Source: Moniliella sp. 'wahieum' | Lineage: Eukaryota | Length of the DNA: 64,000 nt | Direction: 5' to 3' | Assembly (NCBI GenBank): GCA_003971905.1 | Contig: RSEE01000008.1 | Span: 248,001-312,000 of the forward strand | Shown here: piece by piece, positions 134 through 48,188 of the stretch | Layout: each line of letters starts with the position of its first letter | Numbering within the stretch: position 1 is the stretch's first letter | Notes under the pieces: generated by a model | Seen by the model: the letters and a program-made list of their open reading frames with translations, nothing else | Databases searched by the model: none | What the model was told of the DNA's origin: nothing | Made by a program: the position numbers and the translations under genes

Positions 134-3100
134 TTGGCGGTCGACCACGACGAGGCAAACTATGGGGGAGGTCCTGAGTTGGACCCGAGTACGCCTGAAA
201 GCCAACGCCATTCGCTCACCAATTCTTCCGGTCGCAACTCCTCCCGCCCTACCACGGGTGGATCGGGGTGGCGAGTCGAGCCGTCTGGCTTGAGTGGCGT
301 GGCGCGCTTGCGTTCCTCTGCTCACGAAGCAGTTGCCAATGGCACGTACTACTCGGATGCCGAACTTGAGACGAACCGCAGCGGATCCCCACGCCCGTCT
401 AGCAGTCTACGTCCCAGCTCGGGCATGGATCGGCAGTTGGGTCAAGAGGGTGATCCAGAAGTGTCTCACTGGGGTGGGGCTCCCTCGGCTACAACTCTTG
501 ACTTGGCTCAGTTCGATTCCCAGGGCATCATGGCAGTCCCTACGTTTGGGCGCAGCCAGGACAGCCTTTCTTCTTCCTGTAGCTCTTCATCTTCCTCCTC
601 TTCTTCTGGCTCTGTTGATGGGGACGGTAAGACGAAACGCCTGAGTCATGCCCTTACTGAGACCGGTTCACCTCGTCTGGGCCGGGTGGAAACCACGCTT
701 TCGGGTGATGCAACCACTCAGCCTCACGATTCGGACGAAGACGATGGTCCCGATGAGCCCGAGCACACCCTGTCGAACCAGAGCTCAGCTTCGACACTGG
801 CTCTTCGGCCGCGAGGCGGGGGCGCCCCTCTTTCGGCTCTGCAAGCGCTAGCTCACCCTGCCCCCATACGGGATCTAACTTTGCGTCGCGCTTCAAGGCG
901 GCCCGTGCCAGTACCCAAGTCGATGCCCAGGGCTTGACAGAGAAAGCTTCGGTTACCACGTTGACCGGTGCCCCCTGGGTCTCTTCCTCGCCTGTCGCCC
1001 AAGGATTTCCCGCGTCTTCGATGGAGCCTTTACGCGCTTCCTCTAGCCAAGCTAATCCCGCCTCAACGGGGGGCAGAGAGCGCAGCGGAAGTCGGTCCAC
1101 ACGCTCCAGCATGTTGGACGAAGATGGGGTTCGCACCATGGGTATTGCTGTGGTGGGGCAGCACAATGTAGGGAAATCGTCCGTCATCCGAAAAGGTCTC
1201 CGTCAATATGGCCTCTCGCGCCCGACGGTGGTGAGCGACAAGATTAAAGCCTATGCTATCCGCTGTGTCTTGGATCAGCCTACCGCGGAGAACATTCGGG
1301 TTTTGGAACTCGACTCGGCTGCGTTTGTCGCAGCCTCAGGCACAGAACTCGCTTGGCCCGCCGATTTGGCTGACTTGGACCGTCCCGGTCACGGCAAGAT
1401 TGAGGGTGCTGTTATTTGCTACGATGCTGGCTACCTGCCATCGCTCAAGGGTGTCCCTGAGCTACTTGGTATGTTGTTTTGACCTGCTTGTTGGACTCTT
1501 GCTAACGTATTCCCTCAGAATTCTTCCACAAGGCGCATATCCCCACTATCGTCTTGGCGTGCAAATCGGACATTCCTGCCAAGGCCATCGATCCGTTTTT
1601 GGTGCGCGAGTTGGCATCCAAGTTTGCCGCTCGTTTGACCGAGTGCACAACTGCCTTGCCGCCGCCTGGTGCGGCTGCTGCTGGGATGGGAGAAGAAAAC
1701 AAGAAACGGTTAAGAGATGCTTTCCAGTACCTGTTGCGTTCCATGAGCCAAGCTCGGGTGCAACGCGCTGATTTGGAACTTGGGTACGCTACGGCCACCG
1801 TTCGGCACCGCCACCATCACCAGCCCAATTTGCCCTCCACCTCCACTTCCGCTGTCAAGGACACTTCTCGGCACAGGTCCGGATCTGCGTCGCAGGCTGC
1901 CTTGAGCTTACTCCCTACCGCGGGCGGAGGGATGCTGGACCCGGAAGAACTGGCCCCTGCCGAACGTGAACGGATTCAAGAGGAAGAGCAAGCTGCTGGT
2001 CCTGGACCTGAGGCCCTCTCGATTTCCGATTTCCTCGCGTCCATTGCGCTCACGGGCCCTTCTTCGTCCTCATCTGGCTCGGAGGATGGAGAGGTGAGGG
2101 CGGATCCTGATTTGGATGGGGCGGATAGCGATGATGAATCCCGACCTGGTTGGTCCCGCACTTCGCGCCGTCAGTCGTTTATCAGCACCGCCAGTTCTTC
2201 CATGGAACCTAGGGAGCGTGGACGCGGGGACAGCGAGGGTGCAGAAGAGGAGGATCCGACTCCGATGCTCAGCCAGGTCTCCATCCCTTCGGTGCCAGGC
2301 CAAATTGGCGGACCATCTATTCCGACCAGTGGGGCGGTCCGAGCCGCACCGTCCAGTGCAGCCGATGATGCTTCCCGGTTCCCTCTTGCTTTTGGCAAGA
2401 AGAAGGCGCGGGCCAAGGAGCCGGTGTATGTTCCCTTGCCAGATCTGCTGCATCGCTTCTTCACTGCTGTCGTGGCTCACTCGGACACCGACTTCATGTC
2501 GGCCCTGCTGGTGTTCTATCGTGCTTTTGCCTCGCCCGAGTTCCTCCTTTCTGCATTTATGGCTCGGTTCAAGGACCTGGCCGACGATGAGACTCAGTTG
2601 CCAGATGGTCTTGCTGATGCTCCGTCAAGCAAAGCGCTCGATAACCCAACTTTGGTTCACCATGCCCTCGCTCGCCTCGTCACTGTCTTCCAAGAGTGGG
2701 TCCGTCAGTTCCCCGGAGACTTTTCGGCCCCCACAATGACCGACTCGCTGGACACGTTTGTCATGCGCATCAGTCAAAATCAAGCCACGACAAGTATGGT
2801 GCCCGCATTGAAATCGGACCTGCAGCTCTGCCAAACGGCTATCGACTTGGACGTGATGTGGTCCGTTGATGCGTCGGCGGCGCTCTTGGTTTCCCCCTCG
2901 ACTTGGGCCGAAGTGGGAGCGTCCGAATCAGCCGCGGTACGCCATGACGCCTACCGTAACTCGGTGCTTCTCTCGTCGTCAGGGCCAGAGAGGAGGATCC
3001 GTCGACCACGTCGGCTAAGCAAGCGCTCGAAGCGCTTAGCCCCTCTGGACTTTCGATGTTGGCCCCCGCTGCTTCGACAAGCGGAACAGCTCCTTCTGGT

Positions 3101-4393
3101 GTTGCCGACCTGGCTCCCACGAACCCCGCCTCGACTGCCCCCGTAAATGGCGTCCCTCCTAGTTTGAGGTTGACCACGTCGGAAGCGGGCCAGCGCGCTC
3201 GCAGCTCGTCTGTTCTCACAGCCTCGTCGGGACAAGGGAGTGTGCAGTCATGCTATACCGCTGGTTCGGGCCCATCGGAACAAGGTTCATCCAAGACTGT
3301 TGGCAAAGAGGGCGTACCGGAGGAGCAAGAAGAATTGACGGAACCACGCCCTTCGCTGCATCCCATCGTGCCTGGTGGACATCCACGGACCAATACAATG
3401 TCCTCTACCTCAACCACGGGAGCTTACTCGGTAAGCAATGCGTCGACCTCCACATCGGCCACCTCGGTCGCTGTGCCCCCGAATGGGGCGATCGGATCGC
3501 CCACCGCAGGTCTCGACCTGCCTTCCGAGAAACAAGTCGTGACGCTGCGGACGATATCGAATGCGGTCCTGGTGGCCGACGAGGGTGCGTTGGCGGAAGA
3601 ATTGACACGGGTAGAGTGGAGCCTGTTCGCGGTGATTGGCCCACGTGATTGGTTGCGCCATGCGTTGGTCAAGCCGCGCCATCGCATCCCGCACGGCTCG
3701 GTCGCTCAGAGCATCGAATTCTTCAACTACACCTCGGCCTGGGTTGCGTCTATCATCCTCGCCCAACCTAAATTGAAGACCCGTGCAAAGGCGATGGAGA
3801 AGTTGATCCGAGTCGCGGTGCGGCTGCGGATGCTGAACAATTACAACACTCTCTATGCCGTTCTGGCCGGCTTGGCCAGTACCTCGATCCATCGGTTGCG
3901 GCACACACGTGCCATCGTGCAAGAAGATAAGGAGCTGAACAAGCGTCACCTCTCTCTTGCCCGCCTTATGAAGCCCGACCGTGCTTCGGCGGCGTATCGG
4001 TTGGCATTGGAGAATTCGACGGGTCGGATTATCCCCTTTATTGGCGTGCATCTGCACGACATTTTGTCCACCGCCGATGGCAACCCATCGCGGCGTGCGT
4101 CGGATGGGGCGGTTCACTGGCGCAAGTTTGCCCTGATGCATGATGCCATCTCGACGTTAACCAAGTCCCAAAGTGCTGATACGAGGGCGCCGGTAGAGCA
4201 CTCGGACTTGACCAGGCTCATTGTTGACGTACCCATCATGGAAGAAGACGTGCGTATCTACTCTGTCGGCGTGGTTTTTGTTGATACTGACTGACCATTA
4301 TCGATGTAGGTGGCCTACCACACCTCCCTCGCCCTCGAACCCAAGTCGACAGGAGCGGCCCAGACACTTCTGCGCAAAATGCAGGGCTCGTAG
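134..4393 (+). CDS. RasGEF (REM + CDC25 domain) with N-terminal Ras-like P-loop domain; frameshifted, start uncertain
   Basis: P-loop IAVVGQHNVGKS (GQHNVGKS at 1156-1179). REM-like segment DFMSALLVFYRAFASPEFLL. CDC25 domain FFNYTSAWVASIIL...LRMLNNYNTLYAVLAGL...IIPFIGVHLHDI...VHWRKF. Introns 1469-1518 (GTATGT..GCTAAC..CAG) and 4250-4309 (GTGCGT..CTGAC..TAG); last exon VAYHTSLALEPK...QGS ends at TAG 4391-4393. Frame changes near 930 and 3000-3060. Confidence 0.85.
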
Positions 4394-7160: not shown

Positions 7161-8230
7161 CGTGGGGGACGGGGAGGAGGCAGGCAGACGGCGGTGGCTG
7201 GACAAGGTGTGCGTTGCGCCCGCCGACCGGCCAGCTCTTCCCGCCTCGACCTCGACTTGAAGCTTTACGCCCTTTTGCACCCCACGCACAAGGCGCCACG
7301 CGAGGTAGCTTGTGTTGAACCCAGCCAGTGTCAAATTTTTCTCGCCCAGTCCGCCAATTCCGCCCCTCGACCCCGCCGTTTGCATTGCGCGGCGTCAAAT
7401 TACGAAGTCGCTTCTCAATCGGGTTTTTTGCAAACTCCACTTCACGCTCACGCGCACGCAGCACGCATTTGATTCGCAACACCACGCAGCTGGGAGCGAA
7501 CACGCGCCTGCCGCAGATCTCACATCCATGCGCTCAACGTTCTCAACATAATGTGCATAATGTATGATCTGCATGGCCGGACAGTGACCAGAGGCAGAGG
7601 GATCCTTTCGCTGCCCTTTGCCAGCGGGGGCGGCGCGCATATGGCATTAGCCGGTACCACACGCACGCTTTTTATGGTTTGTTCGGCATATACTCCTGCT
7701 AAAAGACTACTCAACAACGCTATCCCCCCCCGTATCTCGCCTATCTCTTCTGGAACAAAGGTAAGAGTGCTGAATGATGGGGTGCGTTTGAATGATTTTT
7801 TTCTTCTGTGCAACGTATCATCAGGGGGTAGGCCTAAGGGCATAGAGCGCACAGCAAGCACCAAGGAAGAAGTGAGTTGGGAGAAGTGTGGGTACAAGGA
7901 AGGAAGAGTTAATTGTGCGCCCACGTATTCTCCATCATGGAAATCAATGTCTACACTTTTGGAGAGGCCACATTGAAGAGGGGAATCTTCCATGACAGAG
8001 CATATTTTAGGGCACGGATCGAAAACGGCCAAGGGAAGAAGAAAGACGCGCACACACAAAACGAAAAGGGAAAAGCGAGAGGGGACAGCTTGGCGTAAAG
8101 TTCTTATTTAATTGGTACAGAAGGCAGTCATGAGAATACCAAGGGGAATGAACCAATTAAAGACAAAGGAGAGAAAGGGGTTCCACCACATATCTTAACA
8201 CCTCATTATCTCCCGAACTGCAGAAAGGAT

Positions 8231-10520
8231 TCAGGTCAGAGTGCCGCCACAGGAGGGACAATCTGTCGGCGCCAGTGGACCCAACGCGAGTCGGATCTCC
8301 CAAAGCTGAGTGGACCGGAGTCGAATATCAGCTTCCAGACGTGCAGCTCGCGCTTGCAGGGCGGATCGGGACTGGTCCGCACTTGGCTGTTGGGATGCGG
8401 GAAGCTGCAACAGATCAGGGGAGGGGTTGGACTTAGGTTTCGGCTTGGGGCAGTCGTGTGCCATGGGCGATCTCGGCTGGGGAGAAGATAAGTTACTCAA
8501 GCGGGTACTAGGAGGTAACGCAGAGGACGGTAATAGGCTCGAAAAGTCGTCGCTGGGCTCGGGGGAGGTGGAGAATAAGTGGGGGAGAAACGACGGCGTG
8601 CTAGGAGAGACCCTAGGTTCATCAGTCATCGTTTGCACGGTGTCGTTTTGAGCAGGTTGATGGAATGAGATGGTATTAGTGGCCGGCGGAAGCTCCTCCA
8701 ATGGAGGGCTGTGGAGTAGGTGGGGCTGAAGAGGTGTGAAGGCGCTGGAGGTCATGAAAGATGACTGGGACGAGTGGAGTAATGACGCATCCTCTTTCGC
8801 CACAGAGGGGGGTTCGGTTGGAGCTCCGGCCAGTGTATCAGGGATGAGGTTGGGCGAGGCGGATGGTTTGCGCGAAGCAAGGTCTGACGCAGTTAAACCC
8901 AGAGTATTATTGTACAACAAGGGGGCATCATCAAATGATGCATGGTAACTGCTGGAACGCGCCACCTTGTGCCGAGGCAATGGAAGAAGGTTGGGGGAAA
9001 GGGAAGTATGATCTAGGTCGCTTATGGGTGGGTCCATTCTAGTGGGGATCTCAGTAGTAGGGCCATTGGAGCATAGCGTGTAGTTTGACAAAGATTGGGG
9101 GAACGCGGAAGGGATGTGGGAGAGGGTTTTCGATTCGGCAAGTGTCTCCGGAGGGGGGAGCCCCAGTGCAGCTCAACAGAAGGTCATTTTTAGGTGACTT
9201 GGGAATAAAGGGGGTAGAGGCTGAGGCGGTGAGCGTAGAGAACGAATGGCTTGGGCTTGAAGGGGTGCAGTGGAGATCTGCTACTTCGGTCGTGAGGTGA
9301 CTGGGGTGTTGCTCAGAAGGAAAGGCAGATGCATCCTGCTGTTGACTTTGGTGGCTGGCCAATGAAGAAGCAGTCAAATGGAGGGTAGGCGGACGTGGCT
9401 TGTAGCTTGCAGTATAGCCAACAGCGTACATGGGTGGTTCGGAGCTGTCAGACCCGTCATTCCGTGTCCGCAAGAAAGAGGAGGTGGTAGAGGAAAGAGG
9501 GTCGTTGTCTTGCAAAAGTGTTTTGCTCTTGTTTTTCTTCGATGAACGATTGGCGCGGCTCAAAAATGAGAAAAAAGAGCGAGATGGGGTCAGTGGACGA
9601 GAACCCCAGTTCAGCTTGGTACCCTTTTTGTTCTGTCTTTCTTCCGAAAAGGATATGACCTTGATACAATGTGATCAGTCTTCTTCTTGTCGTTGCATGC
9701 ATCTATGATTAAAGAAATGCAGAGACAAAGAGCACGCACCGTTGTGGTAGGGATTGCCATGGAGGGGGCAAATGAGGATTTGGAAGGACTGGTCAAGTTA
9801 GCTGTGCTTGCGGCTCTTTGGGATAGAAAATGTGTATTAGGTACATGCATAGAAAACCCTGTCTCATCCGATTCCTTTATTGGGTCCTCGGATGAAGAAG
9901 CAATCCCGGGAATTGAAGAAACCGGACTGCCTAGGCCACCAGCATGCTGTAGCGGTGTAGCATGAGGCGTCGGCGCTGGGCTTTGGTACCATGAGGGCCG
10001 GCGATGTAGCTTGGAGATGGGAACACGCCGCCGCGGAAGAAGCGGGACCTGGCTGGATTCATTGTCCAGGTTGGTGCAGGAAGCGCTGTGAGCCAACTTT
10101 GACTGTTGCCAGGCCGGATCCAAGATGGGGGATAGGGGGCTGAGAGAAGGGGAGGAGAGAATGGGAGGCAAGTTGGGGGTACTGCGGCTGGCAGGGAGTG
10201 TGGTGCGGGGGGTTGAGGATGGAGTTTTGGGCATCTTTTTGGCTGTTTCACGTTGCATGCGGTGCCGGGGCGGTGGGGTGAGGGAGGTGGGGAGCACGTG
10301 GGGCAGCGACCGCAAGAACGTTCGGCGTCGAATGGGAGGATGCAAGTAGGAGTCGTAAGGTGACCGAGTTGAGTCAGACTGCAAGGTAAACGCAGGGCTT
10401 GGCTTAGGAGCGGTGGGCGAGGAAGAGACGCGGGGACGCATGGACGGGAGGGGGCTGTGGCGGGGGACGGGAGGCCGTCGGTGTGGGTGCTGGGGCGGCT
10501 TGCCAGGGAACAGGTGCCAT
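8231..10520 (-). CDS. Hypothetical Ser/Pro-rich protein with C-terminal coiled-coil-like segment and CPSCG; fragmented
   Basis: Consecutive same-strand ORFs (9611-10441, 9051-9563, 8231-9091) of similar S/P-rich composition. Candidate introns 9703-9739 and 9559-9622 restore frame between two of them. No recognised domain. Confidence 0.4.
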
Positions 10521-12166
10521 GGCGGTGGTGGGGGGTACTGTGTGGGTGGTGGCTAGAGGGGGGAGGAGAAGGCGACGGGGGCGATGAGGACGAGACACGA
10601 GATGCTGCTGCGCAACGCGATACGCTACTGTGGGTCTATGTTGAGTTGGGATGGTGTGACCAAGGCAGCATCGCAGATATGAGAAGTGGTTGATCAACGA
10701 GGCGTGGCAAATGTTGATGCTGGGAAGGACCGGGAGGAGGCGCGTCCCAATGCAATCCCAATGCAGCCGATCATGCAAGATGCAGCAGAGAACGATGCAT
10801 GCACGTTTGAGGCTCGCCCCCCTTGCGCGCTCTCCTGCAGCACATCGCCCCGCCTGTGTCCGCGCAGCAGACCAGAGCACATGCAAGGGATGGCGTAGCA
10901 CAGCCCTGGCCTGCCTTGGGTCAGGCCGGTCGGGTGGCATGTGGCATGTGAGGGCCGAATAAGACGGCAAGCACTCGCGCTCGGCCTGCGCAACCCCCTT
11001 CTGCGCCAGTGTCTCCACACCCCGCACACAAGCCTACTATATAGTACAGTACATGCACCCCGAGATGTTTGGCCGGCCATTCTCACTTCGTCCTAGCGCT
11101 TCGCCGCGCATATCGATCGCGTCTGCTCCGGGCCCCTGTGCATGACCCAATGCATACACCCAACCCCCCACCCTCCTCCCTGCATACCACCAATGCAGTG
11201 CACTGCTCCTGGACAAGCACGGCGCCTGTGTGTGCGGACCCAATTAAAACACCTACTAAATGACCCAGAGGTGTGGATCACCAGGACATTGATGTCTCGT
11301 TCGTCTCTCTCTTGCGCTTCGATCCAATCGAGGCCCGTGAGGGCAGCACCGAGCATGTGAGGCCGGAAGCCGGAGGACAAGAACATGCCTTGCCCTGTGG
11401 CCCTTTCACTCTCCTTACTAGGCAGAACCAGCCAGGAGGAGATGCAAATCCTCACTGCATCTTCTCGACCAGAATAAACAGGGTCTCCACATCCATCATT
11501 TTTGACTGTTGACGCATCCCAAAACGATCTAATACCGCTTTTATCATATTCAGGACGCACATCAGTGATGCAGCTGATACTAGGGTGCTTTAACGGTAGC
11601 TAGTATTTACTGCGTCTCCTGCCAGCAATTACTGCCATCGGTGGGGGCCATGATATACTACGTTCCGATTCACAAATGAATTGTTCTCCCACATTATCGA
11701 CTTGACTTTGCCCTAATCCCCCCCCCCCTTTTGTTCTGTGAGAGACATCTTTTTATAGTATAAACCCCCATCAAAAATTCGCCTCTCGCTCCCTCTCGTA
11801 ACGCGTAACCTCATACAAACCCAACCGTCAAATACCTCGGGTTGAGCTTCCGGTATAACACTCTCCATGGATAACTTTCGTCTCATGGTCTGTCTCTGTT
11901 ATATCCTGGCAATCCAACAACTGAACCGTTTGAAGAGGGGTGTGAGACGAGAGATCTGCGATGCCAACCGATGTTGACACGTGTCACGTGCTCGAACCAG
12001 GGCCAAGATAAAAAATGAAACTTGGACTCGCTGCGGCCACGTGGAAGGGCCAGTGCGATGGATGGGTGGGTCGAAAGCGATGGGACCGGCCCTGAGCCTC
12101 TGCCGGGCGGGCTTCCCTCTCTTGCCACCATCTCCATCTCTTTCTCCATCATCGCTGGCGCCCTCC

Positions 12167-15251: not shown

Positions 15252-16740
15252 TTAAGCGGGACCTTTGCGACGAGTGGGTTCGTTGCGCTTATTGGGTTTC
15301 ATCTTGCCTGCCCCGCCCGAAAATACGGGGGGTGCACTCTGCGGTTTCCTGTGGGATGGGACTCTCATCTCTGCGCCTCGCTGGGGGGCCTCGAAGCGCC
15401 TGCGAGGGTACGAGGGGCCATCGATCTGGGGCAGGTGCAGGGCCAAGCGACGGAACATGCTGTGCAGGTTGTATTGCAGTTCGGCATGCGAAGCCTCCAT
15501 GGTACGAAGACGGGCAAAGAAAAAGATGGCCATGTTGTTGGCAGCAATTTGGGCCATTGCATCCACCACGGCCTGCGCCACCCGGTTTCCAGCGCTTGCC
15601 TTTGGATTTCGCCAAACACCACGCGTGATGCACCAAACAACCGGCTTGCCGCGCCCCATCGCACCACAGCCAACTTGTGTGTCGTTTTTTTCCCCGCCAC
15701 GACGCCCATTCGCAGCACGCGATCCTCCTCGGCGTTCTGGATGGCATTTTGGGTGTAGACCAGACGATCGAACTCCCGAATGCGGGGGCAGCCTTTCGTC
15801 TGGTCTGGTGGGTTCGCACCCAACATTTCTCTCCAGGGCAATGAAGGGTCAGCTAGGACACCTACCCAATGCCGCCGCATCACATAGGGTTCGACTAGCG
15901 CAGGCGCCCACACTGCCTTGTAGATCGGCCTTCGCATTTGGGCCGCTGCCGCTGCGTCGAGGCCCGGCACCTTGGGCACAGGCGGATCGCGCTTGCGCTG
16001 CACCGTCCAGATCTTGGCATTGAACACGGTCGAATTGAAGCCAGGCAGTTTACCAGGCCCATTGTACTTGCGCGGTTGGAACCAAGTGTAGGGAGCTTGG
16101 AAGGGAACGTGTCGAATCTGATATTGCAAGCCTCCAGTTAGTCCTGTCGTGCGGATAGAAGAAAAAAGGGCAAAAAAGGGCAAAACACATACCTGCAAAG
16201 GAACGCGTTGGTTCACTGCGGCCCGAATGATGTCCAGCTCCCCTTCCAACCAGGGTAGACAGGCACAAGCGAGTTGAGATCGGGCGCTGCCCCAGGGGAA
16301 GGAAGCTGGGCCCAGTCTGCGTCGGACTGCAACGTGTCGAGATCGAAAAGGGGGAGAGAGGCGGGGAGAGAGCCCGTGGAATCGGGTGCGGGCCGGGGCT
16401 GCGGGGAGGGGAAAGGGAAGTGGACATAAATCTCTTCGCGCTGGTTGGTGGGGGAAATGACAGGCTCAGGGAATTTGGCCTGGTCAACCGGGGGGAGATG
16501 CGGGGACTGCGGGCCCTTCTTGTTATTGCCCTTACCCTTGGGGCCGTTTTTGGGTCCCTTGGCGTGCTTCTCCTGCCGGGCTTGTGCTGGGCGTGGGGAA
16601 GGCTTGGTGCTGGGAGCGGCGGCGGCGGCACCGGCACGCACCAGGGCCGAGGTGCTGAGATGTACCCTGGACACACATGGGCCGGGAGGAAGAGCAGCAC
16701 GAAGCAGCTGGGCGGGTCCGAGGGTGCCGACGGGGCGCAT
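15252..16740 (-). CDS. Putative mitochondrial protein with degenerate RnpA (bacterial RNase P protein)-like C-terminal domain; frameshifted
   Basis: ATG 16740 gives the presequence-like MRPVGTLGPAQLLRAALPPGPCVSRVHLSTSALVRA. In-frame intron 16118-16192 (GTATGT..CTAAC..CAG). C-terminal part reads RMGVVAGKKTTHKLAVVRWGAASRLFGASR then, after a frame change, AIFFFARLRTMEASHAELQYNLHSMFRRL. Confidence 0.55.
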
Positions 16741-17361: not shown

Positions 17362-19782
<2,421 letters not shown>

Positions 19783-21987: not shown

Positions 21988-24567
21988 ATGCCAGCCGCTT
22001 CCCGCCCCCGCCCCCGCCCCCGCTCCCGCTCCCACTCCCGCTCCAGCGGCCCCGCGCCAGCCGCATACAACCTGTCCGACTCGATCGCCTCTCTCTCTGC
22101 TCGGGCCACCGCCACCCAGGCCGGATTTCAGGCTCTCGACTCCTCCACGCCCCTCGGCGTCGACCTCCTCTACCGCTGGGATGGCCCTGATGCTGCTCAC
22201 AACAGCGATGAAGAGAGTGAGATTGCTCACACAGACCCCTCTACTTGCAAGGCTTCATCTGGCCCGCCCCCATTCCCTCCCGACCAGGAAACCACAGGGA
22301 CCAGAGCTGGGGCCCAGATCCCCGTCGATACCCCGCCTTTTTCTCCCGCCGAGGTGGAAGACCATCTCGCTTGGTGTCGCCATCTGCCTTGGTGGAAGCG
22401 GCCGTCGGATGTGATGCTGCGACCGTTTGTCTTCTTCCTTGCCGTTGCCACGGGGTTGGCCATCCCGGTCCGAGTCGAGTTCTTTGACCAACTTGCCTGC
22501 GAAAGCCTCTACTCTTCTTCACCTGCTGCGCCCAGTCTGCCTGGATCAAGCTGGTTCCGCCGCTCCTCCGGTGGTATGATTGCTCCGCACCTTCCTTACG
22601 GACCAGATGATCCTGCCCTGTGTCATTCTGCACCTGTATTGGCTCACAGTGCCAGCCTGCAAATGCGCATCACGGTTCTCTGTGGCTTACTGTCGGTATT
22701 GACGACTGGTTGGTGGTGCGGCCGTTCCGACCGACTGGGACGGCGGGGTGTCATGATCTGGAGCGCACTGGGCATGGTAGTCAATTCGGCAGTGTTCGTC
22801 ATCACGGCCATGGTACCTCGAAGTCGCTTGCCGGGCGGTCCCAACTTTTTGCTCGTGGGCGCCATATTCGATGGACTGGTTGGTGGCATGCCGACGGCAA
22901 TGGCCACGTTTAACGCTTACATCGCGGATGCCACCCCGCCCGGAACTAAAGCGATGGGCTTCAGCATGCTCCTCGGTCTGTTTTACATTGCAATGGCCGT
23001 CGGCCCCGTGCTTGGTGGCCGTCTTGTCGCAATGAGCGGGTTGGTCAGTGTGTTTTACGTTGCAACGGTCATCACTGCTTTGTACTTTGCCTTTGTTGTT
23101 CTTCTGCTCCCCGAGTCGTGCTCGCCAGCGGCGTTGGCCAACTCGCAGAAACAGCACCTCGCTCGCACGAGATTGAACCAAGCCAACCTGGAGGCCCAAC
23201 TCGCCTCTGCTCCTACCTGGGCTCACCAGGTCTGGGTCCATTTCACTTTCCATGTTGCGCGTGTGTTCCAGCCCTTGTCCGTGTTGGTTCCATCGAAAGT
23301 GGAAGTGGTGACCGAGGTCCCGGCTGCGCCGACTTCGATCGTATCGGACGAGGAGACACCTTTGTTGGACCCATCCCGTCGGGCATCAACATACAGTGCT
23401 GCCAGTGGCGCCCCGTCGGCAGAGATCAATGCCTCGTACATTTCTGTCTCGCACGTCTCCAAGAAATGGAAACGCGATTACAACCTGTTGTTGGTGGCGC
23501 TGGCCATGTGGTTTGAAGTATCGGTGATTGGCGTGATGGGAAGCAAGATGCTCTATGCCCAACAACATTTCCACTGGGGTGCTCCCGAAATGGGCGGGTT
23601 CATGACAGCGGCCTCCTTGTCCCGGGTGTTGGCTCTGACGCTGATCTTGCCATTGGCCATCAAACTTCTTCACCGGCCCGCTCACCAGATCGCGCTGCCT
23701 CAGGATAACGATGCTCGGCACGATGCGCTAGACCACGAGGGCCGTGTGTCCCGTCGTGCTTCCCGCACGGGCCTGGCTAGTGACACGCCCTACGACGACG
23801 AAGGTTCGGACGAGGACTCTGATTCGGACGGAGGGGAAGCTCCTCTGACCGAACAGCGGATGATCGAGCATGCGTGGACAATGCGTGCGACTCATCTTCG
23901 TTTGCTCCATGATAGCCGCTTCGACCTGCACGTGGCTCGGGTTAGCATGCTGGTGGCGGTAGCATGCTACCTGGGTACCGCGACGGCCACATCGGGGTGG
24001 ATGTTCGTCTTCTGGACCTGTGCTGCCTGCTTGGGCGCCGGAGCAGGCGCAGCCATCTCATCGCTAGCGGTGGCTCTGTTGAAGGACCCCAAAGACGCAG
24101 GTCGCCTGTTTGGTGCCAACTCGATGCTGGCCGCCATTGGACAGACGGTGATCAGCCCTGTGATCTTCACCCGTGTCTACCAGGCTACCGCTGACACTTC
24201 CTACTCGTGGGCAATCTTCGTGGTTGCGGCAGGTACGTTTGAAGTGACACATCGGTGCTCTCTTCCCGTCTTCTAACCGTTTTCTCTCTCAGGTCTCTTT
24301 TGCATTTCTTTCCTTCTTCTCTGCTTGGTCCGGATCCGCAAGCCCAAGTCTCTCCCTGCCCTACCTCCCGTCCAGCGTCACGGCGAACCAGCGCATTCAC
24401 GCTATAAGCTACTCCGTCGTCCGTCTCGAGTCGGTCTTTCTATATATGAGCCTGCGGTGTATATTTTGATTGGGGGCTCTTGTTTTTCTGTATATCGCTT
24501 CTTTCCTCATCACACGCCCTACATGCCAACCCACCACGCTTCTCCGTTATGGTCTTTTTGGTCATAG
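21988..24567 (+). CDS. Major facilitator superfamily transporter (SLC46/tetracycline-efflux-like fungal family)
   Basis: Intact 762-aa ORF with LPWWKRPS, motif A GRSDRLGRRGV, AYIADATPPGTKA and many hydrophobic helices. Intron 24233-24292 (GTACGT..CTAAC..CAG) adds a last helix GLFCISFLLLCLVRIRKP; that frame stops at 24567. Confidence 0.92.
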
Positions 24568-25113
24568 AATTGAATGTCCATGTCTTTCTTCGTACAATCT
24601 CGCCGCGCTTCTGCACGGTTCCACAAGGACGATCTGGAGGATAATCCACAGACAGCCGTGAAGGAAGCTTGAACCTCTTGCTTTGCCACAATATACTTTT
24701 CTCTAACACAAACACAGCCTATGAGACGTCGCCAATCCAGAATGCTTCCCTCTCCGATCCTGTGCCATATACCAACCTCATCGGCAGTACAGTGAAGTTT
24801 ATGTTTGAGGAGAGAGAATATGAGAAAACCCGAGATCTGTGGCTATGGGAAGAATGACGAAAGCGCAGGGTTGAAGCTCTCACTCTCGCTCAATACGGCA
24901 GAGGTGTGAGACAAGATCCGATTGAATGGCGACATGGTGGTGACAAAAAAGAACACAATAACGATCAAATGATCGGCGATGAATAACAGATGTATGGATG
25001 TGCGAAGAAAACGCGAAGGTCGAAGAATGATAATTGAGCCAATACAAAGATATGCTCAATCCAGTTGGGCCAAGTTGCTCTCAATCTAAGCCAAAAACGC
25101 GTTGTCTCTTTGA

Positions 25114-27106
25114 CTAAAGGGTGGTAGACCCATTCTTCTGGGCCGCAATATGAAGACCACCACGTCGGACCCGACGGAGCTTTGGAACCATGCGAGGCGA
25201 CGTGGGGTCACGTATTTCTGTCAAAGAAGTCGACCGGTGGGTAGAACGGTCGGCCAATGGGCGGCCTTGAGCTTGAGCCTCCTCCGTCTGGATCGAGTTT
25301 ACACCTGGGAGTAGGTGTGTGTAGTATGTGGGAAGGAGCAATGGGGCCGAACCAACCGTGCGTACAGGGTGCCTACGAGGGACAGCCTTGTCGGTTCGAG
25401 TTGGCATTAAAGACGAAGGTGAAGCGTTGAGTGGGACCTCCAATGCCACAGGGTGTGTATGATTTTTGTGAGTGTGGTCCAAGAGACCAGTAGAAGCCGA
25501 ACGGTAGCGTTGGCATGGACTACCTAGATGACCAGAGCTGTGTCGATGTTTAGGCGTTGGAAGGGGTTTGATAGCCCGAGGAGGGGCATTTTGTAACGGA
25601 GCACATGGCGAAGAGGAACGACGACAATCAGTATTTCCTAGGCCGAAGGAATCAGTTTCTTCCTCCATGAGGGCCAAGAGCATGTTGAGTGATGAAGTCG
25701 CCCCCATTTCGCGGATGAACGCAAGCGAGATTTGGTCGCAAGTTGTTGGAGAAGAGGTGCGTCCAGAGCCAGCAGAACGAGCTCGTTTATAGTCGTACCC
25801 GCATGAACTGCGAAAACAGGTGGGGTTGGTCATGGTCTCGATGCTGATTATCCGGGGTCCTGTTGTATTGGATAACAACAGGGAATCATCCAGGTCTTGG
25901 AGGAGGGGTCGCAGTGGAATTTCTTTTGTTGCAACATCCAGTGGGAAAGCGTCAGTTCCTGACTGCCGCCCCTGGGATACCAGAACAGGAGATTCAAGCT
26001 CAACCCGTGTTCCCCTCAGACTGATGTCGGACAAACGTGAGACTGCGTCAGATACGAGGTCCCAACGTTTCTGCGTCTGGCTGACCATATTGGTGGTAGC
26101 CTCTTCCTCCGTTCCAGGACAAGATCTTGAGCGGGAATGGGCGCTGCTCATAGCGCATTTGGCCGTCACCGACACCTGCAATTGGCATGTGTTGGGTGTC
26201 TGGTCCAAAGCCATGGCTGAAGCAGGTTTTGGTGGTCATTGGGGCTGACGGAGGTGAATGACCTATAGGGCGGAATGGCAGTTTGCGCATCTGAAGTTGC
26301 CGAGGACACAACACTTGTCGACCTGGCTGTCCGCAGAGTAAGATTGGAACATTGCGAAGGGGCGCTCGATGCATTTGACGAGTGGGACCATCTTCGTCGC
26401 GCAAAGGGGAGGAAAGTTGGGTATTCCTCGAAACTGGCCTTCGTGAGCAGACCAGCTGACTGGAAAGTACGACCGCCGATAGGTTTTTTGGTTGATGCAG
26501 TAGTAACATTGAAGTTTTCATGCCTGCCGGAACCAAGATCAACGCACTTGAAAGAATGGTCGTGCGCCTGAGGAGCTGGATCTTCAAGGGCCAGCTTGGC
26601 AAAACATCCCTGAAAAAACAAGAACAAATGGTCAGGATATCGATTGCTTAAAACGAAGAGGGCCTGGTGAAGACGAGAATGGATTGTGCTACTTACGCTT
26701 GGAAAAGAAAGGTCCTGAGAAACGTCCTCCAGCATGACTAAAGGGGCTTGTTGGGGGGTAATACGGGTCTGGGGGGTACGTCGGGGGTGGAGATAATGCG
26801 AGTGACTACCGGCACCTGTGCCTCGGATGGCTGATGTTGGGTTGGGTCGAGCGGGTACAAGCCGTAGTTTTGCTGCATCAAGAAGTGTTTAGAAGCAGAC
26901 AGGCGACGCTCTGCTCGTTGCTTGTTCGGTGTCTTGAGCGCTGGAGACGCTTTGGAGTTGGGTAGCGGGCTGCTGGAGTTGCTGGACGGAAAGATGGCAC
27001 TGATGGTCTCGAGATCGGTAAGGACGGCAGTCCAGTGGCCCCCACGGTATTCGCTATCCAGTGACGACGAGGCAATGATGTGGTAGCGGCTCATCAGGCA
27101 GGTCAT
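25114..27106 (-). CDS. Hypothetical protein (orphan), fragmented into 3 ORFs
   Basis: Abutting same-strand ORFs 26738-27106 (ATG start), 26166-26735 and 25114-26214. No recognised domain. Confidence 0.4.
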
Positions 27107-28432
27107 ATGTTGAAGGCAGCCGTCGGGGAGAAACGGGGAAAAGAAGGGAGGAAACAGACCAATGAGAAAAGGAGTATGGTCGAGCGTGGTGTGTTGGTGG
27201 GAAAAGGATGACTGTGTGAGACCAATACAAAGAACTCTTTAGCTCGTGTACATAAAGGTACCGCGTTAAACTTTAAACGTTAAACGTTAGCCGTTGATGC
27301 ATGCATGATGGCTGGAAGGTGGATGCGTATTCAACTGTTGAGTACACTGAGTTACCAAATACTCACAGTACGAAGTCCATGAGGTTCGAAGTGCCGTGGG
27401 AAGAGGGGTTTACATACTGAGGAATACTATAGTTGCAAGACTTGTGCAGGGGCACCGGGTACCAGGATGGTCACTGGCTGGTCCCCAGCGATCATCGACC
27501 GGGCGTGGTACCCCAATGCACCAGTATACCGGTGTGCTTTAATACGTACTGGTGCCCCTGATGTCAATGTCACCGGCACCGAGCCCCGCTGCGCAACACC
27601 AGAATGTTCGCCGCCACATCAAGCTTCAAGACGTGGGCACAGTGACAATCTTGCTTCCCTACCAGTCGCAACACATGTCAATTCTAAGCCACTGATGCAC
27701 ATGCACAGAGATTTCTGTGAACGTTGAACCCTACTGAGCACTGAGCCCCACCATCGTATAACAACAAAAGTAATTGCCATGATGCCATTCCCAACTTTGG
27801 TCACTGAAAAGCATTTGCCCTAAAAGAGGGGAGATGGAGATGTCATCGCAAGAGAGGAGCACGTCAGGGGTAGAACATAGGGGGGAGTCGGATAGAACAA
27901 CGTCGGACATAATGTGTGATCAGCTACATGCGTGATGGCGCTCACTCGGTTGTGGCCACCGCCAAAGGGTTGGCGGATCCTATCGCTTAATACCCTGTCG
28001 TCTCGTCATTCTATCTCTCAAGCTTCATGGTCCACGGGCTTCACATCACGCTGCATCATAACCGCGTGTGGCAAATCAGTCCCTATAATATCCCTACTTT
28101 TTCAATGCCCCTCGCTGCATAGCAGCCACGCTCTGGCAACCCAGAGTGGGCGCAATGGAGGACGGAGCGTAGGACTGCGAGCTTGTACTAAGTGTTGGCG
28201 TGTAGTTGATAGACGTGGGCGAAGGAAGAAAGGAAAGAGATCGGCGTGCAGACCTCGCTCTGCAGAGTCTAAATACCTCAGCCTCACATGGGCCTCACAG
28301 GATGTTCTCAAAGCTCACCACAAAAAACTATCAAGACGACGATGAATGGGTAAGCAAGCGTTGCCAGGTGTAAAAATGTTAGGAAACGATGGGATGCAAA
28401 TGCAACCGTGTAAACTCTCCCGCCTTCTCCCG

Positions 28433-29567
28433 CTAAAGACGAGTACCGGGGGTGCCGAGGAAGGCGGATACCGATGCCGCCGTCTTGGACGACGTTTCTT
28501 TCTAGTACCTCATACGGGTTAGCACATCGCCAAACAGCAAAAGAGGTGGAACGCACAATGAGGTTCGACACTGCTTTGAAGTCCGGATGCTTTGCATCGG
28601 CCAGCAGTTGGAATAGCAGACTTTCTGAGGTAGTGATGACTGCGCCCGCGTTGCGCATGAGCTACACCAGCAGGAAAGAAAGGCAAACGAAGTGTCAGTA
28701 CTATGGGTATTGGCCAAGGGGTAATAGCGAAAGAAATTTGCGTACCCCAAGAGCAGGCCCAATTTCACCTGGGTTGGAGCTGACTCCATCGGTCAGGACG
28801 AAGACGTTGTACCCCTTTTCCCTCAAGTCAAGAACCGTCTGCAGGACACAGACGTGCGATTCTGACCATTCCAAGCCCAGGCAGGCCTACAGGTCAGCAC
28901 ACCATTTGCAAACCGCAATCCAGGAAGGACAACGCACCAATCCCAAAGATAATCACATCCCGCACGCCATCCGGCTGAGCATTGGCCAAAAATTTCTCGG
29001 CGGGGGGGATGAGCATGCTGAACTTGGTTTTTGCCTCAATGTTCACCTTCCAGCCGGGAACTTGTCCAGGATGGTCGTCAGCTCGTAACAGTCGGGCCCA
29101 ATCCTGTATGTAAACCAATCAAAGTCAGTCAGCATTGCCGCCATACACAAGTGGTTCAGCCAGTATTACCCGAGGATATTGTTCGGTGACAAACACGGGC
29201 AGCTGCAACATGTGAGCTGCACTCAGCGTCTTAGCTGCCGTGTTGATGAGTTCAGGGTAGCGCCACATGACGGGACTGGTACACGATGTGGGGGAACGCG
29301 ATCAGTATTCAGGAATCGAAGTTCGTTGCGTTTTGTACTCACCGGAACTGCATGGCACGACGAGGAAGATAAGCAAGGAAAGAGACAAACCACACACCGT
29401 GCAACGTTGACAAGCATCACAGGCGATGGGGAGGTCAGTATGTGTCAATATCGCGACGAAAATCGGAGGGGTTTCTGTACCTTCTCTTGGATATCACAGA
29501 GGAAGACGGCGCTGCGCTCTCGCAGGATACGGGGCACAACATGGGAAGCAGTCGAGGTGATGGACAT
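28433..29567 (-). CDS. Isochorismatase-domain protein (ISOC2/YcaC-like cysteine hydrolase family), multi-exon with 5-nt microexon
   Basis: Splicing gives [28 protein letters not shown]...PVFVTEQYP. Later motifs [70 protein letters not shown]...GTRL*. Introns have canonical donors and branch points; there are some 1-nt indels. Confidence 0.9.
29343..29347 (-). other. 5-nt microexon (TTCCG) of the isochorismatase gene
   Basis: CATGCAG|TTCCG|GTGAGT on the minus strand. It is needed to encode the conserved QEK-F-R-P junction between exon 29481-29567 and exon 29170-29275. Confidence 0.85.
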
Positions 29568-29898
29568 GGTGGGGTTGAAGGTGGTTGGGGGGAGGTAGAA
29601 GGTGGTCCGGGGGGAAGCTGGAAGCTGGGATGGTGTTGAATGATAGGCCGCGGTCATATACGCTCTTGTCGGATCCGCATGCGGCGCTGCAGGGCGCTGC
29701 TTGGCTGCGGCCGCGCACGGGCCTTGGTTGGGGCGATGTGGGGATTCCCACGATTATCGATTACGGTTACCGGTTACCGCGCCGGTTACTGGGCTCCGGT
29801 TTTCGGTTCACGCGTCACGTGGTCACATTCACAGGTGACCCGGTGACGGCCACCAGCCGATCATCGGTCAGCGCTGAGGCTCCGCTGACTGGTGACTA

Positions 29899-30155
29899 GG
29901 TGACTGCTGTCCGCTGTCCACCCAATTAAGTAGGGTTGCTCGGCATGCTGAGGCGCTGAGGCTCAGCCAGGCTCAGCCCTGGAGCCTGCAGCTTCACAAC
30001 GGCCGCGGCAGTAGCGAGCACAAAATTTCATTTCTGGCATTGGGTAGAGGAAGCGGGAAACCAGTTCAACCCTAGTGCACACCCGTGCTGCGGCACATTT
30101 CCCGCCGCTAGGGTTCGTGTGTGCCAGTACCGCCCTGTGTCCCATGCACCCTACC
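29899..30155. promoter_or_regulatory. RPL43 promoter with telo-box/Homol-E-like (AACCCTA) sites, Homol-D-like GGTGACTG and RRPE-like AAAATTTCA
   Basis: TAGGGTT 29931-29937, AACCCTAG 30068-30075, CTAGGGTT 30108-30115, ACCCTACC 30148-30155, GGTGACTG 29899-29906, CAAAATTTCA 30021-30030. Confidence 0.55.
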
Positions 30156-30191
30156 TCTACACCACCTGGACCGCTTCAGTACACTAGCACA

Positions 30192-30632
30192 ATGGTAAGT
30201 TGCCGCTTGGCCCCTGGAGTGGGTGCTGGTTGTGAGGAGACGATGACGCCGTGATGCTCGGTCTAACGTTCGACCTGCCGGTGCACGCAACTACGGGGCC
30301 TTGCTTGACCCACGCAGCCCACAAGATCTTGCCTACTAACATTTCTTTCTCGTCCAGTCCAAGCGCACGACGAAAGTCGGGATCACCGGCAAGTACGGTA
30401 CCCGTTACGGTTCCACCCTCCGTCGCCAGGTGAAGAAGATTGAGATCTCGCAGCACGCCCGGTACACGTGTGCGTTCTGTGGCAAGGACGCTGTTAAGCG
30501 CCGTGCTCTTGGCATCTGGGACTGCCGCGCCTGCAAGAAGCAGGTTGCCGGCGGCGCATGGGCCCTGTCCACCACGGCCGCTGCCACGGTCCGCAGCACC
30601 ATCCGCCGTCTGGTGAGCTCTCGGATGCCTAA
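30192..30632 (+). CDS. RPL43: 60S ribosomal protein eL43 (L37a)
   Basis: ATG|GTAAGT, intron 30195-30357 (TACTAAC branch, CAG), then [43 protein letters not shown]...[17 protein letters not shown]...TVRSTIRRL. Restoring one C at about 30612 gives the usual RELSDA* ending at TAA 30630-30632. Confidence 0.97.
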
Positions 30633-31579
30633 GCGACAATCCTTATGTCTTGGTCGTAATCTCTAGTCTGTGACTCCAACGCAGCCTTTCTCACCTCATT
30701 CCCACCCCACTACCCTGTCGCCTTTTCCCCATTATGCACTCGTGGGACTGGCCGGGTGGACAAGTCACTGACTTCTCGCCCGCCGGCCTCCAGCACTACC
30801 TTTGGGCGTACTCTCACCCGAGGGGCGTGTTCTCCTACCCGCCCTTTTGGAGGGGGGGTCCGGGCGTCTGTGGTTCATGCCGCTGAACAGCCTGCAAAAG
30901 CCCACCATGCATGCCATCTATGCATCCGCACTCACTGCTGTATAGATAAGACCGTGTCAGGAGTTGCGGATGTATAGGATGCGATCGATGGTGGATGGAT
31001 GAACGTGTGTATTTATGCCCCTAGCGGCTATTCGGGTTTCCTGTTTAACCACCAGCACTGCCACCCAAATGCAGATGTGAGGAGGCCTGAGGCTCAGCTG
31101 GATGAGGTTAACAATGTATGTTGCCCAAGCGGGGAGTAGCGCGAGGGGGCGAGACCTGTGAAATGTGGGAAAGGCGAGATGACGGAGGCACTGAGGCTGG
31201 GGATGTGATGCGGAGCAAGGAGTGCGTGGAGCAACGCGCCGCACTTGAAATTTGAAAGCTGTGGAGTGGCTCATATGTGGCTCTGGCCCACCGGCCGGCA
31301 GGGCACACCCCACACTGCGCCCCCACCCACTGTGCCCCACTGTGCCCCCGCTGATCCTTGGATTGAAACTCCAAGCTAGATCGTACGTTGCACTCTGCCG
31401 GACTATTATAATCCAGCTGCTGTCGCCGCAGATCCGCTTCGATCAGCGGCCGCTCAGCCACCCGACGGGCTGATCGGCATTCTTTCTATTCGCAGCCCCA
31501 CATGCTGATGCCCAGGCTAAGACGAGCGTCCAGCACTTCCTCCCCCCGCTCCATCACCACACTCTCTCAGCTGTCGCCA

Positions 31580-33112
31580 ATGGCACGCGCCCTCGTTTGC
31601 CAGCCTCCTTGCCCTCCTGCTCCCAGCCCCGGGCATTCAGGCTCGCACAGTACACACTTCCAGTGGCACTTACACCTCGGTAGCGAGCCGCGTGTCGGGC
31701 GTCAGCGAGTTCCGCAACATTCCCTACGCCCTGCCCCCCACTGGCGCCCGCCGCTTCCATCCGCCCCACCCCATCAATGGCTCCCCCTCGGCTCGGCCCA
31801 ACAAGCGAATGACTACCCCCCTTCTGCCCCAGTGGGTCACAGCGCCCAGCGAGTACAAGTCTGTTTGGAGCGAATACTTTTGGTACACCTCCCTCGGGGG
31901 AGTCAACCAGACCGAGACGGGCATGAGCCCTAGGAGCCAGGAAGACTGTCTCCGTCTCGCGATCTGGACCCCCTCCAAGGCAAAGAAGGGGGACAACCTT
32001 CCTGTCGCCCTTTCTTTCCTGGGGGTGGATTTGTTTCGGGAGGCGTCGACGTTCCAGTTCAAGTTCCTGCCCAGTGGGTGGGCCGTTCGCAGGAACATAT
32101 CGTCGTTACCGCCAACTACCGCCTCGGCATTTTGGTTTTAGCAACGCCCGGGGCGTCACTCGCAAGAATGTAGGAATTCTGGATCAGCGGGCAGCACTCA
32201 AGTGGTTGCCGACAACATCGCCCGCCTTTGGGGGCGATCCAAGTCGCATTACAATCGGGGGCAGTCCGCGGGTGCGCAGTCGGTTGACTTTCATGCGTTT
32301 GCCTGGCCGGACAACTTGATGCCATGGCATTTTTGCCCAATCAGGCGTGGCGGTCAAGCCACAACCATTTAAGGACGTGGAGGGGACCAACTTTACGTCG
32401 GTTGCTCATGGTGGGATGCAAACACCGCAACTGCTGAGTCTGAACTACAGTGCATGCAAAAGGTGTCGGCCTCTGACATTCTTGCCTGGGTCGCCCACCA
32501 TGGAAACAAGGTGAAATTTGGGCCAACTCCAGATGGAAAAGTTATCTTTGACGACTATGCCGCTCGTATGGCCGAGGTCGCTTCGCTCACGCCCCCATTA
32601 TCATCTCGAATGCTGCAAATGGGAGGCGAGCTTGGTTGACTTCCCTTCGAATGAACGTGGGACCTGATCGAGCACGACGAACGCTGAGACGATGCGTCGA
32701 TTCATCTGCCCTTCGTCCAACAGCTCGGCCTTGCGGCATAAGACGGGACGCATCACGTATCGTTATCAATTGCGGGGCAGTTCAGCCAGTTTCAGACCAA
32801 CTTCCTCATGCATGGCTTGCCTCGGCCCACTCATCGGATCTGAGCCCTTTCTTTGGCACGTACGACCTCACTGCGACAGATGCGCCACCGGGACAAGTGA
32901 GCAGGATCGAGCGAGAGACGGCCCATGGATGCAAGACTACTGGCTTTCCTCAAAGACCCTATTCGGGTCCGGCTGCCGCGGGGTGGCACCCATATGCTTA
33001 CCCTGGCTCCATTCTTCGCTTTGGGGCCGATGGCCAAAGTGTGCAGAGCGTGTCGGGTTCCGAAATTGACGGACCGTGCCGGGGGGTAGGCACTTACAAT
33101 CCCCATCCGTGA
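31580..33112 (+). CDS. Secreted type-B carboxylesterase (alpha/beta hydrolase); heavily frameshifted, could be a pseudogene
   Basis: Signal-peptide-like start (SFASLLALLLPAPGIQA in a shifted frame). Motifs EFRNIPYALPPTGARRF, EDCLRLAIWTP, NYRLGI, NVGILDQRAALKW, FGGDPSRITI, nucleophile elbow GQSAG at about 32258-32272, AHSSDL. Ends GPCRGVGTYNPHP*. Confidence 0.85.
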
Positions 33113-34626
33113 TCGAGGATGTTCTTTTCTTTTTCCGCCTGTACATCATTGTTGCTTTGTTGGTTCTTGGTCGAGTCTCTGCGGCGTGGGCTCAGCACCT
33201 TCCACTATCACCATCATAATGTCACACAGGAGATGTTACCATGTTTCTGGTTACCTTTGCTAAAACGATCTCCTACACACTTCTTTTCTCGAGTAAAGCG
33301 ACGCACTGTACGAATTCATTACTACCTCCGTGTTTTTTCCTACCTCTCCTTCCATTTACGCTTGTTGAGACCTTGTGCTCTAGAACGACTCTCGGTACCC
33401 TTTCCCAGTCTCCAGTCATGTAGTCAGGCTTGAAGACGTTGGTTCCCTATGTTTCACTCTTTTTGCCGCAGAGATTGATCCTTCTTACGAGCCAATACAA
33501 ACCCATAGGATATCACGGTGTGCCTCCGTAGCCAGCTTAGGGAGGGGCAGTGAACGAACTCATTCATCCCCCAGGGCGATACCGACTGGGGAAACCACTA
33601 CATCAACCGTTCGTTGTTATCGAATCGATGAGACCTTAACTTGGCATGGATCTGTGTTTCTGCCTGCATATCCTCTTCCACAACATGGCCGTTGCTCCCG
33701 GTGACGCCGAGAAGGGCGTTATCTTTTCAAAGCACCCTGTGCCTGTGCCACACCACAGAGGCTAACGTCTCTCATAAAGGTCGGACCCCACCAATACCGT
33801 GTGTTCGGTCGCCACTTGGGCCACGCTGAGGGCTACACCTACACTAATGGTAAGGCCAACAACAAAAGGCCGTTGTGTTGCCGGATGAAAACGCCATGTT
33901 TGACTAATTCCTCAACCCCAAGAAGTACATTGGCATACTTGGTACCAGCACGGCCTAATCGTCCTGGTGCCCTCTTAGTCTCGCCCCCACCGCACTCCTA
34001 GTATCTGTCCCTCTCTTTCCCCCTATGGACGACTATTAACACCTGCTCTATCCCTTAGAGATGTTATGGTGGTCTCGAGAAGAAAAGAGACCGCAGTGAT
34101 CTCATTACCTATACCTCAAAGAGGCGACCGGTTGGACTTGGTGTGCCAACTAGAGGCTTTTTGGTTGCATCGCACCAAGGGGAGGTAATCACTTTTTCCC
34201 ATCATCCCTGTCCAAGCACCCCATCCCCTCTTGGGGAGAGTTCTCACCCTGAAAAGCTGCAGAATCCAATTAGGTAGAGCCCTTCCTCTCAACCCTCGCG
34301 GCGACAATGGTCGTCGAGAGAGGGAGTGGCTATGAACCAGGGCGATGCCGTCGTCCTTGGCAGCTACTAGCTACACTTACGTCATTGAGTGCAAAATGAT
34401 TATATCGAGGGGATTGGTGCTAAAACATATTGGGTTAAGTGGGTTAAGGGCAACCCCACCTGGGCATCGAAAGGGGGTGTCGGTCGCCATGGTGGCGTAG
34501 TATGCTACATGGCGCGGGCTGACGATCAGCCTTGAACCTCCTGGCCACAGTGCTCCCCGGCTAAGTGATAATAAGATCTAGGGAGCAGTTAGGTTTCTTT
34601 GCCCTTTCTTGAGGCCAGACGGGGCA

Positions 34627-47487: not shown

Positions 47488-48188
47488 GGTGGGGGAAGTG
47501 GCGCCGACAAGGTGTTTGTTGGTGGGAGAAAGTGAGGGCTGCCCCAACCCACCCTCACAGAGCCACATCCGCGCTCCTTTTTCGGCCATGCAAAAAATTG
47601 GGGGCGGAACAGCTGAAGCGGAATTGGGCTCAGCACCGTCCGATCGTATGCACCGGTCTGGGGAGCCTTGTGACCAGTGACCGACAGCCGGTGACAACCC
47701 TAAGGTGAGGCGGCCCATGCACATATTCCCACACACCCGCCGCAAGCACTGGCCCACTTCGGCCTGCAGCGGACGGTGAGGAAAAGGCTCGAGCACACAA
47801 GGCCACAGCCAGTACTCAAGATAGAGTCGCCATCGTCGACTCCAGGTGTTGTATATACTTAACGAGGAAGTGCTATCGGATGACATTCTTAGTGCCTTCG
47901 CAGTCTTCGCTTGCTTCTGTTGGAGGGTAGTGCTGGGGTTCCCCTGCACGGCCCTCGGTGGATCGGCGACGCTCACTTAACCGGGCGGAAGAGTTCCGCT
48001 TGCAGGGCACGCGCGCCCTGCTCGCTTCATCTCCCTTCTCTCTCTCCTCTCCTTCCCTTCAATTCAGATGTTGCTTGAACTTTGCCTTCACGCCTTGTCT
48101 GAAGGCTGCATTGCAGCTGATCCATAGGATCGCGAGTGCTCCCAAGTCGCACTCTATAGCAGCTTCGTCTGCTTCGCTCTGTCAACAT

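Follow-up and report, generated by a model that had tools for sequence, protein, structure and literature searches.

Gene structure and conservation

The gene considered here lies on the minus strand at positions 15252-16740 of a 64,000-nt stretch of DNA (contig RSEE01000008.1, positions 248,001-312,000; hereafter the window, to which all positions refer) and encodes a protein of about 470 aa, the C-terminal part of which resembles RnpA (C5; Pfam family PF00825), the protein subunit of bacterial RNase P. An original prediction, made from the letters of the window, had described this protein as nucleus-encoded, apparently mitochondrion-targeted and of a degenerate RnpA fold. Our analysis found a real, conserved, intron-containing nuclear gene, the product of which we regard, by a modest preference, as an RnpA-derived, probably mitochondrial RNA-binding cofactor with a possible link to a P RNA. 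The features of the locus, read from the start codon onwards, are as follows.

15252-16740, minus: complete coding sequence for about 470 aa, from the ATG at 16740 to the stop codon at 15252-15254, with two exons and two frame breaks attributed to the assembly
16193-16740, minus: exon 1; the ATG frame is used to about 16250, and the next frame (LEGELDIIRAAVNQRVPLQ) from there to the donor
16573-16740, minus: 56-aa N-terminus of presequence-like composition, with 6 Arg, 1 Lys and neither Asp nor Glu; 52% Ala, Leu, Ser or Arg; contains RVHLSTSA
16118-16192, minus: intron of 75 nt, read directly from the sequence; donor GTATGT, branch site ACTAAC, acceptor CAG, phase 0 on both sides
15791-16117, minus: conserved stretch in the middle of the protein (IRHVPFQAPYTWFQPRKY ... 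HWVGVLADPSLPWREMLG), assigned to no known family
15414-15757, minus: RnpA-like domain; its alignment with RnpA begins at the second or third strand and extends through the last helix
15686-15712, minus: RMGVVAGKK, putative counterpart of the RnpA strand R-h-G-h-x-V-x-K-K (h, hydrophobic)
15641-15670, minus: AVVRWGAASR, where RnpA has its A-V-x-R-N-R-x-K-R (RNR) helix; just the first Arg and one of the later ones survive
15588-15589, minus: second frame break; two spare bases, GA, between CTG (15590-15592) and AAC (15585-15587)
15444-15530, minus: AIFFFAR strand and EASHAELQYNLHSMFRRL helix, which would correspond to the final strand and helix of RnpA
15255-15413, minus: C-terminal tail, basic, Pro/Arg-rich and poorly conserved

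Direct translation of this strand gave three overlapping open frames: the first starts from the ATG at 16740 with the N-terminus MRPVGTLGPAQLLRAALPPGPCVSRVHLSTSALVRAG... and is closed by a stop at 16213; a second frame, with LEGELDIIRAAVNQRVPLQ, extends to the GTATGT donor at 16192, resumes after the intron with IRHVPFQAPYTWFQPRKY and runs on to ...RMGVVAGKKTTHKLAVVRWGAASRLFGASRVVFGEIQRQAL; and the third, with NRVAQAVVDAMAQIAANNMAIFFFARLRTMEASHAELQYNLHSMFRRLALHLPQ..., is read through to the stop at 15252. The strings and coordinates of the original prediction were all recovered on the minus strand, with RMGVVAGKKTTHKLAVVRWGAASRLFGASR in the frame of the open reading frame (ORF) 15365..16465 and AIFFFARLRTMEASHAELQYNLHSMFRRL in a different frame, that of ORF 15252..15848.

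An exhaustive HMMER search with the 180-aa piece of the middle frame against 1.84 billion representative proteins returned two true relatives, P0001 (298 aa, 71% identity, E 6e-80) and P0002 (265 aa, 54% identity, E 2.8e-41), both from short Logan contigs; a third match, P0003, was rejected as spurious, since it is a repeat protein of 1536 aa with 10 matched stretches. Among the word-indexed protein searches, the one for longer relatives of the window piece found nothing, and neither P0001 nor the family profile brought up any protein beyond P0001 and P0002. Two metagenome scans with the family alignments gave 265 and 594 pattern matches, none of them a relative. As far as these searches reach, the family is very narrow, with three members.

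Both P0001 and P0002 keep to one frame across the position of the second break (...QEQAARGERTAQAVVDAMARLAADSMAIFFFARLRTMEASHAELQ...), with a Gly aligned at the break column. The two motif halves, which in the window stand in different frames, thus belong to one protein, against the objection foreseen in the original prediction that they might not share a frame, and the frameshifts that the original prediction had suspected proved to be genuine features of the assembly, one at 15588-15589 and the other near 16240-16260, within ggttggaagggg; the exact position of the latter is loose, the orthologues not covering exon 1. Both frame changes require a -1/+2 move, the effect expected of one base lost from the assembly. 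An intron was rejected as the cause of the second change, as no plausible GT...AG of workable length is present and the orthologues read through. In exon 1, a possible alternative intron of 137 nt (16399-16535) would also join the frames, with no branch-site motif and with poorer support from GC3 (G+C content at third codon positions), a measure that discriminated only weakly between frames. A 35-nt mini-intron at about 15829-15863 on the minus strand (GTAGGT...CTGAC...AG) was rejected as well, since VGVLADPSLPW, which it would remove, is conserved coding sequence in both orthologues; this look-alike is a trap for gene predictors.

The gene is most likely intact and its two frame breaks assembly indels, because similar breaks split the neighbouring spermidine synthase-saccharopine reductase gene and the gene at 8231-11033. 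The former, a fused gene on the minus strand at 17362-19782, is continuous in ORF 18584..19324, where the end of spermidine synthase runs directly into the Rossmann start of saccharopine reductase, and shifts frame with no intron at three or more places, near 19315, 18740 and 18095. At the first and last of these a Pfam domain is divided over overlapping ORFs: positions 1-58 and 54-181 of Spermine_synth lie in two overlapping ORFs, between which an intron cannot fit, and positions 1-98 and 90-265 of Sacchrp_dh_C are divided likewise. At 8231-11033 (minus) a long Ser/Pro-rich, low-complexity coding region extends over four or five overlapping frames, with a strong GC skew at 8001-10000 (+0.30) and no long tandem repeat (a 29-nt unit occurs in 1.9 copies only), and is probably a single gene interrupted by indels of this type.

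It is very unlikely that the locus is instead a pseudogene in which both breaks are true mutations. Two breaks do fall within 1.5 kb, and the public reads yielded one contig of 210 nt, identical to the window over 15351-15560, which reaches neither of them; it came from a run with a word share of 0.11, and two further runs gave nothing. Against this, protein-like sequence stands on both flanks of each break and is conserved in the orthologues around the second, and the comparable breaks occur both in the 8231-11033 gene and in a neighbour whose domains serve spermidine and lysine biosynthesis.

Similarity to bacterial RnpA

For comparison with RnpA we used 71 sequences, namely that of E. coli K-12 and 70 from a sample of one proteobacterial phylum, in which PF00825 matched 120 of 121 genomes. 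With a hidden Markov model (HMM) of this set (filters off, Z=1), P0002 scored 11.2 bits and P0001 10.9 bits, each in two collinear stretches that together span positions 37-113 of the 119 in the model, and the frames of the window matched adjoining parts of the model, 40-61 (6.3 bits) and 66-113 (9.4 bits, from the piece of the third frame alone). Shuffled sequences reached the real score in 0 of 3000 cases for P0001 and 1 of 3000 for P0002, and the reversed sequences scored -1.3 and -1.4. When every stop-to-stop frame of 40 aa or more in the window (1019 in all) was compared with the model, the two frames of the gene ranked first and second (8.7 and 5.6 bits; next frame, 4.2), both with hits collinear with the model.

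Profile-profile comparison with hhalign gave a similar picture. The full family alignment matched RnpA with a probability of 81% (P 1.2e-5, score 39.2, 91 columns) and the domain-only alignment with 84.9% (P 6.4e-6), while single sequences gave 54% and 65%; the two pieces of the window, aligned separately, took template columns 53-79 and 80-141, the latter with a P of 4.7e-4 for the third-frame piece. With the template reversed the score fell to 12.3 and with the query reversed to 15.3; none of 149 column-shuffled queries reached the real score (mean 12.3, sd 2.3, maximum 23.0), and decoy families from the same bacterial loci (YidD, YidC, L34) gave P values of 0.28 or more.

In the alignment of RMGVVAGKK..LAVVR to RlGltVsKK..AVeR, which has high posterior support, the central strand signature R-h-G-h-x-V-x-K-K is followed by A-V-x-R. 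The R, G, V and KK of RMGVVAGKK, like the AV and R that follow, are invariant in all three family members and coincide with conserved columns of RnpA. The last strand (ending in A-R or A-K) and the C-terminal helix are also present.

In standard library searches, PF00825 (Ribonuclease_P) was the sole Pfam family at E<=10 for P0002, with an E of 0.21 and 12.1 bits for residues 85-121 against model positions 27-60, below the Pfam cut-off of 22.3 bits; at E<=10 nothing was found for P0001 or for the three frame pieces of the window, and NCBIfam returned nothing for any of four sequences. A profile search of PDB gave Harmonin alone (E 0.48), which was rejected as noise. Judged by the accepted score thresholds, the protein is not a PF00825 member.

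A different method pointed to the same family. In an ESM Atlas search among named clusters, residues 105-235 of P0001 matched at rank 2 (score 0.84, 148 of 256 features) a 98-member cluster that is wholly eukaryotic and mostly from Basidiomycota, has a representative of 286 aa and carries PF00825 on 18% of its members; automatic Pfam labels evidently already exist on some basidiomycete proteins. This cluster is the nearest named language-model neighbour of the domain. Its representative is about as long as P0001 (298 aa), and its phylum agrees with the one inferred for the window; any kinship would be distant. The phylum of the window was taken from the spermidine synthase-saccharopine reductase fusion, described in PMC10051792 as the basidiomycete form, by which the basidiomycete host proposed in the original prediction appears probable. 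Because the profile comparisons and the language-model search, two different methods, lead to the same rare family, and this in the inferred phylum, we raised our estimate of homology, and we consider true homology to RnpA likely.

Several observations weigh against this reading. The RNR motif (R-N-R-x-K-R-x-x-R-E) is not kept: in its place stands R-W-G-A-A-S-R-L-L-G-A-S-R, or R-W-D-V-A-S-R in P0002. This part retains about three of some six basic residues, carries an insert of 4 residues and aligns with low confidence; the change from RNR to RWG given in the original prediction held, as R-W-G/D. A 17-residue insert precedes the last strand, and the first 40 or so residues of RnpA (the N-terminal helix and first strand, with the leader-binding cleft) are unmatched, the hhalign alignments beginning at template columns 51-64 of 155 with no match upstream. 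The RnpA profile was drawn from a single phylum. Two AlphaFold2 models, one from the full alignment and one of the domain alone, were all-helical and of unusable confidence (mean predicted local distance difference test, pLDDT, 36.0 and 46.9). Atlas scores below 0.9 are leads only by the tool's own note, an Atlas query with the 180-aa piece of the second frame returned unrelated viral polymerase clusters (best 0.79, rejected), and a phmmer search with this piece did not reach the Basidiomycota cluster at E<=0.001.

These observations bear on the alternative that the likeness is a product of chance and composition, in a lineage-specific protein of unrelated fold, which we hold to be the less probable account though one of appreciable weight. 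All scores lie below thresholds, AlphaFold2 drew helices alone, at unusable confidence, and the three-member family makes a thin query profile. The site was, moreover, picked by a pattern-seeking reader for its RnpA likeness, so that the ranking of frames is not selection-free and targeted P values overstate significance; a P of about 1e-5 holds for one pre-chosen family and is not significant alone across some 20,000 families or across all that this reader scanned. What chance explains poorly is that, in each of the three members, the two halves fall on neighbouring parts of the RnpA profile and in collinear order, that reversed, shuffled and decoy controls fall far under the real score, that the more diverged orthologue, P0002, gives the best score, and that the language-model search reached a Basidiomycota cluster partly carrying PF00825. 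The RnpA likeness appears real yet belongs to the twilight zone. Of the fold claimed in the original prediction, a specific C-terminal profile match to bacterial RnpA stood, while the score stayed below the Pfam cut-off, the RNR motif was lost and the N-terminal third found no match.

Presequence-like N-terminus

The acid-free, Arg-containing N-terminus with an R-x-x-L-S-T-S-A pattern, noted in the original prediction, was observed as such: RVHLSTSA is present, the first 56 aa contain 7 basic residues and the first Asp or Glu comes at residue 57 or later. The composition resembles that of a mitochondrial presequence, and mitochondrial targeting is probable on this compositional ground; a predicted N-terminal helix would have only a modest hydrophobic moment, 0.45 at most.

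Proposed function and relation to known systems

In the account that we narrowly prefer, the protein would be imported into mitochondria and would bind RNA via the retained core of RnpA, that is, the R-x-G-x-x-x-x-K-K strand, the start of the next helix and the last strand and helix. There it may assist RNA processing as a cofactor that binds RNA, with mitochondrial tRNA precursors or a divergent P-like RNA as its most plausible clients. The structure and conservation of the gene and its controlled profile-level likeness to RnpA are shown by the data, from which homology, localisation, RNA binding and function are inferred. We suggest a cofactor rather than a canonical C5-type subunit because the RNR helix is largely de-charged and the leader-binding N-terminal part unrecognisable; in bacterial RnpA, as described in PMC4919922, P RNA is bound by the RNR motif and the pre-tRNA leader by the central cleft.

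The rarity of P RNA genes in the phylum argues in the same direction. According to a 2012 review (PMC3790967), rnpB had by then not been found in any basidiomycete mitochondrial DNA (mtDNA); it was later reported from a few (PMC10113387, PMC4466345), and PMC10113387 describes it as uncommon among basidiomycetes. The original prediction had offered two roles, service to a mitochondrial P RNA or repurposing as an RNA-binding protein; these reports weaken the first, and a degenerate RNR motif in a phylum where rnpB is rare favours the second, an RNA-binding cofactor.

A true mitochondrial RNase P subunit, the RnpA-like domain of which would bind the mtDNA-encoded P RNA (rnpB) and pre-tRNA leaders as bacterial C5 does, we judge unlikely. 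It would fit the PF00825 and RnpA profile matches and the presequence-like N-terminus. Fungi are stated to be without PRORP in a 2024 review (PMC10941002), and the composition of mitochondrial RNase P is given as unknown in several fungal clades in the 2012 review (PMC3790967); nuclear genes for bacterial-type P proteins are described for Ostreococcus (PMC4919922), and rnpB has been reported from a few basidiomycete mtDNAs. The RNR motif, the main P RNA contact in bacteria according to PMC4919922, is however not kept, the leader-binding part is unrecognisable, and rnpB is called uncommon among basidiomycetes (PMC10113387) and had by 2012 been found in none (PMC3790967).

Compared with bacterial RnpA, the protein shares the order and spacing of R-h-G-h-x-h-x-K-K, A-V-x-R, a hydrophobic strand ending in A-R and a final amphipathic helix, with profile-profile probabilities of 81-85% over 77-91 columns. 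It differs in length (about 470 aa against about 120 aa), in its nuclear, intron-containing gene, in the replacement of RNR by R-W-G/D with the 4-residue insert, in the 17-residue insert and in the unmatched N-terminal helix and first strand. The P protein of Ostreococcus tauri is likewise the RnpA-type product of a nuclear eukaryotic gene and is thought to serve an organellar P RNA (PMC4919922), but is described there as recognisably bacterial-like and able to complement an E. coli mutant, whereas the fungal domain, compared by description only, is far more degenerate. With yeast Rpm2 and eukaryotic PRORP it would share a candidate role in mitochondrial tRNA 5' processing; unlike PRORP, it has no PPR or PRORP-type domain, no Pfam family besides PF00825 being found at E<=10. 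A literature search that lacked most subscription journals found no paper on a fungal RnpA-type protein.

If the homology and the targeting are true, this RnpA-derived nuclear gene product with its presequence would offer basidiomycetes a concrete candidate, open to testing, for their missing mitochondrial RNase P, and, if repurposed, an example of an endosymbiont RNA-processing protein in a new mitochondrial job. A bolder version, which we consider improbable, is that basidiomycetes keep a nucleus-encoded, mitochondrion-targeted descendant of the endosymbiont RnpA as the missing protein of mitochondrial RNase P, either partnered by a P RNA too divergent to be annotated so far or serving as the RNA-binding module of a novel type of enzyme.

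Other features of the window

The gene content of the window is eukaryotic and fungal (RasGEF, WD40, MFS, saccharopine reductase), and the whole window gave no Rfam match and no tRNA match. No ORF of at least 250 aa is present between 26235 and 39396. The GC content is 0.51-0.55 at 24001-38000 and 48001-62000 and 0.58-0.62 in the rest of the window. In a RasGEF gene at 1506-4294 (plus strand), the RasGEF_N domain lies in ORF 1506..3146 and the RasGEF domain in the overlapping ORF 2960..4294, separated by a frame break or an intron.

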